64,000 nt of DNA from a virus (IMGVR_UViG_3300029288_001872:96001-160000); one strand, 5' to 3'; counted from the first letter of the stretch, positions 10,046 through 15,609 are shown. Made by a program: numbers and translations. The notes: generated from the sequence alone by a model not told the origin.

Positions 10046-11362
10046 ATGTGGCTCATGCTTGACAATCACCTTGACGCAGAAAAAATCTTGACCAAGGCTT
10101 TGATACCTACCTTGCTTCACACAATTACTGCCCCAAGAGAAATCAAAGGGTTGGCCTTCCCGGAAGAAGAAAAAGACAAGGTTCTTAAACTTCTGAAATT
10201 AGAAGAAAAAACCTGGACAACGATTAAAACCAATGACGATAATGTTCTTCTTCTGGAAGCACAAGGAAGGGTCATCAAAATTGGTGGTCATCTTCAAACT
10301 TGGAATGAATTTTCTCCAGTTTTAGAAGAATATGCAGAATTACTCAATGTTAAAATAGTAGTTTCAAACCCACATAAGAATCAGATAGGAAAAGGAGTAA
10401 CTTTAGAACCAGAGGCAGAAGAAGGAACTTTGTTTATAAAGTTCTATGCCTCTCCTAAAAAAACCAAAGCAAAATCATACAAAGAAGTTTTCGGTTTTAA
10501 ATTAGGAACAAGTCAAAGTGATGGGGTAGAACCTTCTGGCCAAGGACAACCAATTGTTGATCCTGTTTCTGAGACCACCATTGCAGAAGTAATTGGCGAC
10601 AACCTTTATGTTCTTTTTGATTTGCCTCATAATGATGGTTTGAAAAATAGCCAAGAAATTATGAGACAAATCATGGAACAATATTCTCTTCTACAAAAAT
10701 CGCCAGAAGAATTAAAAAAATGGAGGGAAGAAGCAAAAGAAAGAGAGGCGACTAAAACAAAAGACGCCTATGTTAAAGAATGTTCAAAAAGGTTAAAAGC
10801 GGTAAAAAACGGATTGATAGAAGATATTGAGGAAAACGAAAACGAACTAAATGCTTTGGGCCAAAGAATTACCGAGTTGATAAGACAAATTGACGAAAAG
10901 AAGAAACAACTCTTCGGGTTTGACGACCTTGAAGACAGAGAAGAAAGATTTTCCCAAGAATATGATAAGTTGTTAGAACTACCTCATGTCAAGAAAGTTT
11001 TGGTTGAAGAAGGCAAGGTTAAAGTTTTCACTAACACCATCTTTCTTGAAAGCGATGGAAAAGTCTATGAGATGGGAGATTATCGCATTGATATTCCTAC
11101 GCAAGACACCGATTTAAAAATTGCCAATCTAAGAATGGAAGAACTGACTGGGCAAACATATTTCCACCATCCTCATGTTTCTGGAAATAAAGATGGCGCA
11201 ACTCCTTGTTTGGGAAATATTTCAGAGGGTGTTATGCGTCTAATTGGTGCATATGAATTTTCAGTAGTAGCACAAATTCTCATTGAATATCTACATAGTA
11301 GTAGATATCAAGATGAATTGACAGCTTACTGGAAGCCAATTAAAAAACAAAAAACCGCGTGA
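10046..11362 (+). CDS. Coiled-coil protein with C-terminal E2-like domain
   Basis: FHHPHVSGNKDGATPCLGN resembles the E2 HPN...C motif; adjacent to JAB, E1 and Ubl genes. Confidence 0.75.
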   Translation: MWLMLDNHLDAEKILTKALIPTLLHTITAPREIKGLAFPEEEKDKVLKLLKLEEKTWTTIKTNDDNVLLLEAQGRVIKIGGHLQTWNEFSPVLEEYAELLNVKIVVSNPHKNQIGKGVTLEPEAEEGTLFIKFYASPKKTKAKSYKEVFGFKLGTSQSDGVEPSGQGQPIVDPVSETTIAEVIGDNLYVLFDLPHNDGLKNSQEIMRQIMEQYSLLQKSPEELKKWREEAKEREATKTKDAYVKECSKRLKAVKNGLIEDIEENENELNALGQRITELIRQIDEKKKQLFGFDDLEDREERFSQEYDKLLELPHVKKVLVEEGKVKVFTNTIFLESDGKVYEMGDYRIDIPTQDTDLKIANLRMEELTGQTYFHHPHVSGNKDGATPCLGNISEGVMRLIGAYEFSVVAQILIEYLHSSRYQDELTAYWKPIKKQKTA

Positions 11363-11395
11363 ATAAAATCTAAAGAATATCATAAGGAGGAATAA

Positions 11396-12202
11396 ATGAA
11401 AATTGAATCGGTAGTTCCAATCATTGTCATAACCCCAGACGCCAAGGCAAAGCTGGATGCCTATATCGGCATCTGTAAACAAGAAATCAGTGGTTTGGGT
11501 GTAGTAAGGAGACTCCCTGGTTGGAAATTTCTTATCGAAAACATCATCTTGTTTTCCCAAGAAGTTACAGCAGGAACAACAGACCTTGACGAAGAAACTC
11601 TTCACCAATTCTTAACTGAAGCTGTAAACCAGAACTTGGACCCCTCGGTTTTAAAGTTGTGGTGGCATAGCCATGTCAACGGGTCTTGTTTTTGGTCTGG
11701 TATTGACACCGGGACTATCGACAAAGCGTTGTTAGGTGACGATTGGATGCTATCCATTGTAGGTAACAAAAAAGGCGAATACAAATGTCGTCTTGATACT
11801 TACGATCCAGTCCGTATAGCATTAGATGAACTATCACTACAATTGCAACAAACAGTTGACGTTGGCCTTTGGAAGCAATTGAAGGCCGAAGTTAAAGAAA
11901 AAGTGAGAAAGAAGAAATATACCACATATCAAGCAGGCGGTTGTGGAATTTGGGAAAAAGGAAAAGTTTGGAGTCAAAATAAGTGGGTGTGGCCGGATGA
12001 AATTGATGACCAACCTATCCTGCCTAAACATTCTTCAAAACGTTCTTGCGGGGAATGCAAGGATTTCATTGAAGGAAAAAAGACTTGCAAACAAAACTTT
12101 GCTAGTGGAAAATTTATGGCTGCTTGCAGACTATTTGAACCTATCCAAATAGGCGAAAGTGAAGAAACAAAAGAACAAGACTTGCAAGTGGGGATGGTTT
12201 AA
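11396..12202 (+). CDS. JAB/MPN+ (JAMM) metallo-isopeptidase
   Basis: E...HSH-x7-S-x2-D motif: KQEISG ... WWHSHVNGSCFWSGID. Confidence 0.9.
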   Translation: MKIESVVPIIVITPDAKAKLDAYIGICKQEISGLGVVRRLPGWKFLIENIILFSQEVTAGTTDLDEETLHQFLTEAVNQNLDPSVLKLWWHSHVNGSCFWSGIDTGTIDKALLGDDWMLSIVGNKKGEYKCRLDTYDPVRIALDELSLQLQQTVDVGLWKQLKAEVKEKVRKKKYTTYQAGGCGIWEKGKVWSQNKWVWPDEIDDQPILPKHSSKRSCGECKDFIEGKKTCKQNFASGKFMAACRLFEPIQIGESEETKEQDLQVGMV

Positions 12203-12864
12203 TGGTAAATCAAAAACCCGATTTTTGGAGGCAGTTTGACATTCTTCGGCCTACCGACTTAGAATTCCCTGTTCATATGGGAGGTTGTGGTGGTATCGGG
12301 TCTCCCACTGCCTTGGCTATGGCGAAAATGGGGTGTAAAGATATGACCTTGCATGACCATGACACTGTGGAAAACCACAATTTACCCAATCAGATTTACC
12401 GATTGACAGACGTGGGAATGTCCAAGGTGGAAAGTTTGGCCAAAACCATTGAAGACTTCACTGGTGTAATACCAAAAACTTCCCTTGAAAAGATAACTGC
12501 TGATTCAAAATTGGTCGGATTGGTAGTATCCGGGGTTGATTCTATGGCAGCCAGGAAAGAAATTTGGCAAGCCATCAGATATAAAACGACAATCCCTTTG
12601 TATGTGGACGCAAGGATGGGTGCGGAAGTTTGTCGCATCTATTCCATAAGACCAACTAATCCTATGGACGTGGAGATGTACGAAGGCACATTGTATGACG
12701 ATGCAGAAGCCCAAGAATTGCCTTGCACGGGTAGAAGTATTATCTACAATGTGTTTATGATCGCGGCATTGATTTGCAGCCAAGTAAAGAAGTTTGCCCG
12801 CGGCCAGGAATTCAACAAAGAGGTCATCTTTGACTTGGTTACATTGATGTGTTTGACTGAGTGA
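12202..12864 (+). CDS. ThiF/MoeB-family E1-like adenylyltransferase
   Basis: GCGGIGS, DHDTVENHNLPNQ, VDSMAAR; candidate catalytic Cys in ELPCTG; no Zn-binding CxxC pairs. Confidence 0.93.
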   Translation: MVNQKPDFWRQFDILRPTDLEFPVHMGGCGGIGSPTALAMAKMGCKDMTLHDHDTVENHNLPNQIYRLTDVGMSKVESLAKTIEDFTGVIPKTSLEKITADSKLVGLVVSGVDSMAARKEIWQAIRYKTTIPLYVDARMGAEVCRIYSIRPTNPMDVEMYEGTLYDDAEAQELPCTGRSIIYNVFMIAALICSQVKKFARGQEFNKEVIFDLVTLMCLTE

Positions 12865-14628: not shown

Positions 14629-15119
14629 GTGAATTGATCGCAGAGGGGTTAGATGTTTCTGGAAGTTATTTTGATTGGAACAATTTACCTATCATTGAAA
14701 GAAAAGTAGTTTTGGTTGAACCTGAAACAGAGAACTTTCTTCATATGACCAATAAAGAAATGAAATCAATTTTAAATAATTCTTTTGTGGAAAAAGTGGA
14801 AGAGAATGTTTCTTGTTATGGAATTGTAACTTATATAAAGCCATTCACTATCAAATATGCTAATCAATTTGGGAAAGAACCATTTGAAATGATATATGGC
14901 TGTAGAATTTTACTGAGAACCAGAGGTAAAGGCCCGATGGTCAAATTCTACCATCATAAACATCCAGAAAGAATTAGAAACCATGATAATGTTAGACTAA
15001 ATGGTGGTGTTTGTTTGGGCAACCTTGAAAAACCAATTTCTAAACTGCTTAAAGCGAAAGAATATGCAGTAGCACTTAGTTTGTTAATTGAATTTATCCA
15101 AGTATTCAATGGAATGTAA
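14619..15119 (+). CDS. E2-like protein (divergent)
   Basis: NHDNVRLNGGVCLGN...EYAVALSLLIEFI; ATG at 14619 follows AAGGAGG. Confidence 0.65.
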   Translation: MGLSELIAEGLDVSGSYFDWNNLPIIERKVVLVEPETENFLHMTNKEMKSILNNSFVEKVEENVSCYGIVTYIKPFTIKYANQFGKEPFEMIYGCRILLRTRGKGPMVKFYHHKHPERIRNHDNVRLNGGVCLGNLEKPISKLLKAKEYAVALSLLIEFIQVFNGM

Positions 15120-15159
15120 ATCAACCAACTAAATAAAAACAAATAAGGAGGAAAAGAAA

Positions 15160-15609
15160 ATGCCAAAGTATCGGGTAACTGAAAAGATTTCACGTGATTT
15201 GGAAGCGAAGCAATACGGCATCCAAGTTTTTGATGTGGAGGCTGATGATGAAGACGAAGCTAAAAATATGGATTCTGACGAGGGAGAGTTGGTCTCTGAA
15301 ACTTGGGAGCCTGTAAGTCAAGAGGAAATAGAAGAAGCCATCAAGGACGCCAATGAAGATGGCGATCACGAGTATGAAGAAAACATCAGCGTCGTCCAAA
15401 TTGGCAGCTCTTCCACAGACCATATGTTTGTCAAAGTGGTCTACAAGGGTAAAGTGGATGAAGTGATGATTTCTCGCGGCGGCGTCATCAGAGAAGCGTT
15501 AGGTGCTGCAAATATCTCTTCGAGAGATGTCATCAACCTCACTGTCACCGGCATCTCTTGTTGTCTGGACACTGAATTGCGCCCAGATGACATGGTTTAT
15601 GTGGATTGA
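15160..15609 (+). CDS. Acidic N-terminal domain fused to C-terminal Ubl domain
   Basis: C-terminal 61 aa MFVKVVYKGKV...TVTGISCCLDTELRPDD closely matches ORF 12928. Confidence 0.75.
   Translation: MPKYRVTEKISRDLEAKQYGIQVFDVEADDEDEAKNMDSDEGELVSETWEPVSQEEIEEAIKDANEDGDHEYEENISVVQIGSSSTDHMFVKVVYKGKVDEVMISRGGVIREALGAANISSRDVINLTVTGISCCLDTELRPDDMVYVD

Follow-up and report, generated by a model that had tools for sequence, protein, structure and literature searches.

A predicted ubiquitin-like protein conjugation module in a large phage and its relatives in phages and bacteria

Introduction

Tests of ubiquitin-like (Ubl) protein conjugation in prokaryotes have to date dealt with it only as a weapon of bacteria against phages, in the Bil systems and in Cap2 of CBASS (anti-phage signaling that is based on cyclic oligonucleotides); for the Bub operons, a defensive function has been deduced from genomic context. 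Here, we describe a locus in which a complete kit of activating enzyme (E1), E2-like proteins, JAB peptidase, and Ubl is found on the virus side. It lies at 10046-15609 of a 64,000-nucleotide window, the whole stretch of DNA analyzed, which is bases 96001-160000 of the 189,632-bp IMG/VR virus record IMGVR_UViG_3300029288_001872, rated complete by CheckV. As a prediction from sequence, the module is real and well supported, and it represents an undescribed family of Ubl conjugation systems that is widespread in phages, with E1s of the same type in at least 96 viral contigs. We found no description of a phage E2-JAB-E1-Ubl kit in the literature, including an overview of jumbo phages (PMC7824862), although most subscription journals were not covered.

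The nearest described system, in its list of parts and in the preprocessing of the Ubl by a JAB peptidase, is Bil (BilABCD). Bil types I and II, which are operon classes 6d and 6c of Iyer et al. 2006 (PMC1779556; 10.1101/2023.09.26.559546; 10.1101/2023.09.04.556158), contain the same four parts, Ubl, E2, JAB, and E1, as the phage locus. The predicted likeness extends to a Ubl with residues after the reactive glycine for the JAB to remove, and to a catalytic Cys in an E2 whose UBC fold is diverged. In type II Bil, it is BilC that exposes the Gly-Gly of BilA (10.1101/2023.09.26.559546). However, the Bil gene order is Ubl-E2-deubiquitinase-E1, whereas the phage order is E2-like, JAB, E1, and Ubl, and BilD is an E1 of several domains, with inactive and active adenylation domains and a Cys domain that is mobile, whereas the phage E1 is a single domain of 220 residues (10.1101/2023.09.26.559546). 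Furthermore, the conserved His of BilB is downstream of the Cys (CEHH), while that of the phage E2-like proteins is upstream, and Bil is bacterial and acts as a defense. None of classes 6a-6e of Iyer et al. (PMC1779556) matches the phage kit.

Other systems resemble the locus in part. Archaeal sampylation (SAMP1/2, UbaA, HvJAMM1/PfJAMM1) also relies on a small ThiS-type Ubl, an E1 of the ThiF type with a single domain, and a JAMM peptidase by which the Ubl is cleaved, but it has no E2, its UbaA also serves in sulfur transfer, and it is cellular rather than viral. The operons of Caldiarchaeum and Asgard archaea encode a separate E1, E2, and Rpn11-like JAMM peptidase, and the His motif of their E2 lies upstream of the Cys, as in the phage; however, they work with true ubiquitin, a eukaryote-type E1, and a RING E3 (PMC5654768, PMC3082918), whereas the phage kit has a ThiS-like Ubl, a minimal E1, and E2-like proteins with large N-terminal domains of their own. 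Type II CBASS Cap2/Cap3 and Bub likewise combine E1/E2 chemistry with a JAB or other peptidase in prokaryotic conflict (PMC10097602; PMC11601596). In Cap2, E2 and E1 are fused, and a CD-NTase instead of a Ubl is conjugated (PMC10097602), and Bub forms Ser oxyesters and has a peptidase-E1 fusion (PMC11601596); by contrast, the phage parts are separate, with an invariant Cys in both the E1 and the E2-like domain. Finally, the tail assembly genes of phages lambda and T1 include a Ubl domain with a conserved Gly (TAPI) adjoining a JAB (TAPK, JAB plus NlpC), but these belong to a tail module without E1 or E2, and a processing step is involved, not a conjugation cascade (PMC1779556). The architecture seen here is distinct in combining a minimal E1 with a SAMP2-like tag and with an E2-like domain of the HPH type, to which large variable domains are fused.

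Components of the locus

The initial annotation of the window placed eight open reading frames (ORFs), here p1 to p8, on the plus strand of this region, and all eight are present. Its identification of an E1, a JAB peptidase, and a Ubl ending in Gly-Gly plus one residue is borne out by a ThiF match, a complete JAMM motif, and SAMP2-type profile matches together with a KGGA end.

The E1 is p3 (12202-12864, plus strand; 220 residues), which matches PF00899 (ThiF) with E = 4.7e-18 and 65.6 bits, for a cut-off of 28.1 bits. A profile of its orthologues finds ThiF (2.8e-15), Uba1 (8e-15), and also UBA5, NAE, and Cap2 in the PDB. In PADLOC, the CBASS Cap2 "E1-E2" models match the nucleotide-binding part only (9e-11), and in PHROGs, p3 falls in phrog_15670 (7e-25), annotated as "unknown function". 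The residues invariant in eight E1 orthologues are G28, G30, and G33 of the GxGxxG motif, D52, D54, K75, D113, R118, R138, and R10 of a DxWRQ motif, while p3 has Asn for the Arg of NLxRQ (HNLPNQ). Its only invariant Cys among these orthologues is C175, in a PCT motif; the PDB profile alignments end before it. C175 is the candidate equivalent of Uba5 C250 or ThiF C184, the Cys expected in the crossover loop of minimal E1s. The protein is a single domain, with no separate Cys domain, no ubiquitin-fold domain, and no rhodanese domain. Thus predicted, p3 is firmly a ThiF-type E1.

The assignment of p2 (11396-12202, plus strand; 268 residues) as a JAMM/MPN+ metallopeptidase is a similarly firm prediction. 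The protein alone has no match in Pfam, and its JAMM motif is complete (E30...H91-S-H93-x7-S101-x2-D104), with all five residues E30, H91, H93, S101, and D104 invariant in nine orthologues and the alignment with Rpn11 and AMSH in register. All 28 PDB matches of the orthologue profile are JAMM peptidases (Rpn11-like, Rpn11, CSN5, BRCC36, and JAMM1), starting from 6.4e-5. The best of them is the Rpn11-like protein of Caldiarchaeum, and P. furiosus JAMM1 is among the weaker ones, at E about 0.5. The C-terminal part of p2, at residues about 200-245 (window 11980-12130), contains four Cys residues (CxxC...C...C), as does the peptidase at 10846-11955 of the phage contig L007; this segment is found in the JAB of both lineages of ~190-kb phages and is absent from the versions in metagenome-assembled genomes (MAGs). 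It may be a zinc ribbon.

The Ubl with Gly-Gly plus one residue is p5 (13149-13355, plus strand; 68 residues), a firmly predicted pro-Ubl of the SAMP2/ThiS-like beta-grasp type that ends in IKGG-A. On its own, p5 matches ThiS in Pfam at 0.0034, below the cut-off; its orthologue profile finds P. furiosus PF1061 (3.4e-6), SAMP2 (7.4e-6), and MoaD (0.002) in the PDB. The p5 orthologues end in GG plus 0-3 residues, and most Ubl orthologues in viral loci, about 30 of the 44 tails listed, have 1-3 extra residues after GG. This is the tail arrangement that BilC processes in Bil systems (10.1101/2023.09.26.559546).

Two further Ubl domains are paralogues of p5, namely p4 (12928-13113, plus strand; 61 residues; 37% identity) and the C-terminal 60 residues of p8 (15160-15609, plus strand; 35% identity), in which the Ubl domain is fused to an acidic N-terminal region. 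Both proteins stop at the end of the last strand, p4 with VYAT and p8 with VYVD, and so have no Gly-Gly tail, and this tail-less form is kept in the sister phage L006. Therefore, only p5 of the three would be conjugatable in the usual way, and the view of the initial annotation that all three are tags does not hold. The tail-less p4 and p8 cannot reach the E1 active site or be activated, and they probably act as binders, regulators, or decoys. Elsewhere, a Paceibacterota MAG (L012, 8414-9022) has a Ubl that runs past QGN into a second domain and must be cut for use, and a viral contig (L047, 2018-9558) carries JAB-E1 pairs at two separate places, with a Ubl for each pair.

What are the remaining proteins? 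A domain of about 150 residues is common to p1 (10046-11362; 438 residues, with the domain C-terminal), p6 (13435-14628; 397 residues), p7 (14619-15119; 166 residues), and three stand-alone paralogues outside 10046-15609, at 1771-2265, 17453-17941, and 17953-18531, all on the plus strand. The initial annotation had listed p1, p6, and p7 as its E2 set; these are present, but the count was incomplete, since a search of the whole 189.6-kb genome gives six E2-like and three Ubl domains, all of them inside the window. For p7, the version starting at ATG 14619 is predicted to be likelier than that from TTG 14586, because the homologue P0007 begins at the residue that matches ATG 14619.

H-H-x-H, C, G, and E are invariant across the six paralogues. 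Their signature can be written HPH-x(9-16)-C-x-G, in which H, P, H, C, and G show little or no variation (p7 reads HHKH). In p1, the candidate active-site residues are H375-P-H377 and C388. Of 76 distinct E2-like ORFs in related loci, 48 retain the pattern HPH[VI]..G..C[LWF]G. The hallmark of E2s is HPN[IV]..G.IC, and the parallel between HPH...C-x-G and HPN...C, with Asn replaced by His, supports the E2-like reading. A profile of the six paralogues finds 1462 clusters (at 50% identity) with E<=1e-3 and 251 with 1e-10. Most of the 1462 are proteins of 350-500 residues with the domain at the C-terminus, and none carries a name or a Pfam domain. One of 94 homologues, P0017, matches PF00179 (UQ_con) at 7.1e-5 and 22.9 bits, below the 27-bit cut-off. 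The match, from residues 294-378 to profile positions 1-83, runs through the HPH, and C377 is within one residue of its end.

Structure prediction agrees with this. The AlphaFold2 model of the p1 tail (predicted local distance difference test, pLDDT, 76) has a helix, a meander, a loop, and three helices, the order of secondary structure in UBC domains. In a VIA search against 48,161 PDB representatives, most of its 50 best matches are UBC, UEV, or RWD domains at Z 5-6.8, including E2S (6.7), UbcH10 (6.4), Ube2K (6.0), and the CBASS E2 8hsb (5.2). The E2 chains align over 106-122 residues, and RWD domains score equally well. A model of full-length p1 built from 94 homologues (pLDDT 90.8) consists of an N-terminal alpha/beta region at 1-200, a helix of about 70 residues at 220-291, and a UBC-like domain at 295-438, of which residues 296-432 match UbcH10 (Z 6.8, root-mean-square deviation 3.7, 114 aligned). 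The long helix swamped the VIA list of this model; modeled in this way, it suggests dimerization. The Foldseek lists of both models are dominated by E2s, with top E-values >0.05 for the full model. The E2 identity put forward in the initial annotation thus stands in part. A UBC-like fold, the signature, and one UQ_con match speak for it, while the scores are moderate and no curated model matches above its cut-off. Taking sequence and models together, we consider the HPH..C domain to be a diverged UBC-fold domain that is probably active, with support that is moderate and not conclusive.

The N-terminal parts of these proteins differ. Compared with p1, p6 is 41% identical in the coiled coil and HPH..C domain, and it has a different N-terminal domain. 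Residues 1-200 of p1 (window 10046-10645) are conserved from phages to MAGs of the Candidate Phyla Radiation (CPR), with invariant NPH and FDLPH motifs. A sequence search with them gave no usable match, and no fold or family could be assigned from the model, for which Foldseek gives weak ACT/ferredoxin-like and GATase rows and VIA gives a fucosidase beta-domain at Z 7.0; the BFVD matches are uncharacterized phage proteins only. The N-terminal domain of p1 and the differing N-termini of its paralogues are the obvious candidates for target choice. In a scan of p1, p2, and p4-p10 with Pfam, PHROGs, and PADLOC, only coiled-coil noise was obtained in addition to the ThiS match of p5 noted above.

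Proposed mechanism

We consider it likely that the locus encodes a Ubl conjugation cascade, of a family widespread in phages. The domains, motifs, synteny, and distribution are observed, and from them, we infer the chemistry, the role of the N-termini, and the targets as follows. The JAMM peptidase p2 would cut the C-terminal Ala off the pro-Ubl p5 to expose Gly-Gly. The E1 p3, presumably a homodimer, would adenylate the glycine of p5 and perhaps hold the Ubl on C175, from which the Ubl would move to the invariant Cys of the E2-like domain (C388 of p1, 10 residues after HPH). The E2-like protein would then transfer the Ubl to a lysine of the target, a host protein or a protein of a competing phage. 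The six paralogues would each pick their target through their variable N-terminal part and so act as a combined E2/E3. The JAMM peptidase could also reverse the mark. No RING domain was found in the eight operon ORFs or in ten scanned neighbors.

Several observations weigh against this cascade. With no Cys domain and no ubiquitin-fold domain in the E1, the hand-off from E1 to E2 would be unorthodox. The E2-like profile reaches E2s in the PDB only at E about 0.6, the Foldseek E-values of the domain are >0.02 and its VIA Z scores <7, and the E2-like proteins of the window itself have no Pfam Prok-E2 or UQ_con match at E<=0.1. The nearest relatives of the Ubl, SAMP2, ThiS, and MoaD, also act as sulfur carriers, and no E2 takes part in the conjugation of SAMPs. 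Tails of GG plus extra residues that are trimmed by a JAB also occur in sulfur-carrier pathways, in QbsE/QbsD and CysO/Mec.

The last of these points would be expected of a sulfur-carrier pathway, in which the trimmed Ubl is adenylated, thiocarboxylated by way of host sulfurtransferases, and hands on its sulfur, with a nucleic-acid base, a tRNA, or a small molecule as the acceptor. In that case, the HPH..C proteins would be persulfide relays or sulfur-accepting enzymes. The resemblance of the Ubl to ThiS, MoaD, and SAMP2 and of the E1 to ThiF, its closest relative in the PDB, is consistent with such a pathway. However, p3 has no rhodanese domain, and a search of the whole 189.6-kb phage with rhodanese (PF00581), PF00266 (cysteine desulfurase), and PF01171 (the PP-loop of the TtuA/TilS type) gave no match, with controls that were positive in 13-14 of 14 genomes; host enzymes could substitute. 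As the initial annotation had noted, no thiamine or molybdopterin genes are nearby, and none of these families was found in Pfam scans of ten neighbors. The third partner is UBC-like with an E2-type His...Cys signature, for which a role in sulfur relay is not known, and target choice accounts for six paralogues that differ in their N-termini better than a single biosynthetic step does. Hence, we regard a sulfur-carrier function as improbable.

Distribution

Two other phage contigs, each about 190 kb long, encode relatives of p1, with 94% identity in L006 and 34% in L007. Eight further loci (L008-L015) came from a species-genome collection and are mostly from the CPR; the sources are Saccharibacteria, Paceibacterota, and Collierbacteria MAGs, one Thermoplasmatota MAG, and one gammaproteobacterial MAG. 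Wherever the sequence suffices, the order in L006-L015 is E2-like, JAB, E1, and usually then Ubl (the contig of L014 stops inside the second E2-like gene), and p1 orthologues open the operon in L006-L013. The Ubls end in GG plus 1-2 residues (CL, H, GW, L, or TE), except in the most divergent pair, where the end is QGN. Among cellular genomes, the closest homologues of the operon as a whole are those in the CPR MAGs of Saccharibacteria, Paceibacterota, and Collierbacteria.

A search of viral contigs with the E1 alignment gave at least 96 relatives, on contigs of about 4 kb (fragments) to 395 kb, and 80 were kept. The components in these loci were tallied with hidden Markov models (HMMs) built here, in a counting window of 6 kb. 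A JAB adjoins the E1 in 77 of the 80, a recognizable E2-like gene is present in 58, and a Ubl in 41; 38 loci have the full set of four. The order Ubl-E2L-JAB-E1 is the most frequent (18 loci), followed by E2L-JAB-E1 (12) and E2L-JAB-E1-Ubl (8), where E2L is the E2-like gene. The lengths of the E2-like proteins in the tallied operons range from 132 to 1305 residues, with one of 1690 residues just beyond the 6-kb window at L069, and several viral loci have two E2-like genes. Only this phage and its sister combine two additional E2-like genes with two Ubls that lack the tail. That E2-like protein, JAB, E1, and Ubl are strictly conserved together, in divergent phages and in some genomes of bacteria, argues for a joint function of these parts.

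The 22 of 80 viral loci in which no recognizable E2-like gene was found bear on a second alternative, a conjugation like that of the SAMPs, for which E1 and Ubl suffice. The HPH..C proteins would then be non-catalytic adaptors resembling RWD or UEV domains, or the main substrates. The closest solved relatives of the Ubl are SAMP2 proteins, P. furiosus JAMM1 appears among the weaker matches of the JAB profile, and RWD domains equal E2s in the fold-search scores, as this would lead one to expect. However, the loci without an E2-like call are mostly the most divergent ones, where the E2-like HMM is weak. Furthermore, the Cys and the His-Pro-His, placed like the HPN of E2s, are invariant or nearly so in a very divergent family, whereas dead RWD and UEV domains lack them. 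We therefore give conjugation independent of the E2-like proteins little credence.

The JAB-E1 pair also occurs in the replication modules of the Flavobacterium phage FpV4 (L096, 2548-5618) and the crAss-like phage cr128_1 (L097, 3288-6672). The annotation of the E1 in FpV4-like and crAss-like phages is "thiamine biosynthesis protein" or hypothetical, and the former name, given to the E1 of FpV4-like phages, would suit the sulfur-carrier pathway discussed above. The proteins upstream of the pair have 420-435 residues and a YMHSH..C[LI]GS motif. When the E2-like profile was compared with them by hhalign, the crAss-like protein gave E 0.002 (probability 13%) and the FpV4 protein gave no match. 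They are possibly very divergent E2-like proteins, judged by the motif, and this is a weak lead only. The kit may thus extend to cultivable FpV4-like Flavobacterium phages and to crAss-like gut phages.

Some copies of the operon are truly bacterial, since L013 has cellular flanks (a penicillin-binding protein transpeptidase, topoisomerase I, and Nramp), as does L009 (Fic, an AbiEii-like ATPase, and an ankyrin protein). In a quick maximum-likelihood tree of the E1, MAG copies occur at three or more separate positions among the viral ones, and the nearest non-sister relative of p3 is a Saccharibacteria copy (63% identity, SH-aLRT 82). Together with the landfill origin of the phage DNA, this relationship may be a clue to the host or to gene exchange.

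The operons in bacterial genomes also raise the question of what the conjugation is for. With the same chemistry as the cascade proposed above, its purpose could be that of a weapon between phages or against host defenses. In one form, a phage-carried defense like Bil would tag structural proteins of competing phages; in another, the JAB and the tail-less Ubls would strip or jam the Ubl immunity of the host (Bil, CBASS Cap2). The homologous operons at L013 and L009 are consistent with this, Bil systems tag phage tail proteins (10.1101/2023.09.04.556158), and the tail-less Ubl paralogues look like decoys. However, the kit is located in or beside the replication module here, and possibly also in FpV4-like and crAss-like phages, and its frequency in viral contigs of all the sizes found fits a routine function in infection equally well. 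We therefore consider a weapon possible as the purpose, without favoring it. The purposes suggested in the initial annotation, to modify proteins of the host or of rival phages or to jam Ubl defenses of the host, are not separated by these data.

Returning to the conjugation cascade itself, we put forward only tentatively that its E2-like proteins are a phage-specific radiation. One minimal E1 and one tag would serve many E2/E3s, whose swappable N-terminal domains (six paralogues in this phage, with proteins of up to about 1700 residues elsewhere) would address different targets in the host or rival phages, with the tail-less Ubls as tuners or decoys. Phages may have been a main reservoir and vehicle of E2-type Ubl conjugation in prokaryotes, because phage and CPR-bacterial copies are intermixed in the E1 tree. 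If the locus does conjugate, it would be the first counterpart in a bacterial virus of the manipulation of ubiquitin by eukaryotic viruses. It would also offer a tractable minimal E1-E2 pair for the study of mechanism, and bear on the origin of E2-based conjugation.

Gene arrangement and genomic setting

The initial annotation placed all eight genes under one strong promoter, which is not what the sequence suggests. A sigma-70-like promoter candidate, TTGACA-17-TAAGAT, is at 9994-10022 on the plus strand, 24 nt upstream of p1 and by consensus match only, and an AAGGAGG Shine-Dalgarno sequence at about 10033 is ahead of p1. A terminator-like hairpin with a perfect 15-bp stem, 7 GC pairs, and a following T-run is at 13370-13403 on the plus strand, beginning 15 nt past the p5 stop. 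Overlapping this hairpin, at 13388-13416 on the plus strand, is a second promoter-like site, TTTGCA-17-TAAAAT, upstream of p6, where there is also a second AAGGAGG. Given the hairpin after p5 and the promoter-like site before p6, the candidate signals are those of two transcription units and not one, a core unit (p1-p5) and an accessory unit (p6-p8), although the number of promoter-like sites in the region is not in excess over shuffles. In the sister phage L006, a TnpB/IS605-OrfB-like gene of 382 residues is present at 11454-12602 on the minus strand. Its insertion separates the Ubl-GGA gene from the second E2-like gene, at a point that corresponds exactly to the joint at 13356-13434 of the window.

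All sizeable ORFs of the window are on the plus strand. The kit is located among small ORFs of unknown function, immediately upstream of the replication genes, and its placement in the early region by the initial annotation follows from this position only. Downstream are a primase, two helicases, a split family-B-type polymerase, a CCA-adding enzyme, and a UvsX-like recombinase. The replicon is therefore a large tailed phage. Its DNA is present entire in a landfill metagenome and in part in groundwater metagenomes, and no phage in INPHARED gave a blastn match to the operon.

Directly after the accessory unit, at 15660-16046 and 16092-16409, are two small proteins with N-termini resembling signal peptides with a lipobox, neither of which has a family match. 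Eukaryotic SprT/Wss1 proteases are linked to ubiquitin and SUMO, and a candidate SprT-like metalloprotease with an HExxH motif is encoded at 16906-17343, where PF10263 matches below its cut-off (E 2.3e-4); this gene comes after the accessory unit and ahead of the E2-like paralogues at 17453-17941 and 17953-18531. It is followed by a tRNA-Arg(TCT) at 17334-17409.

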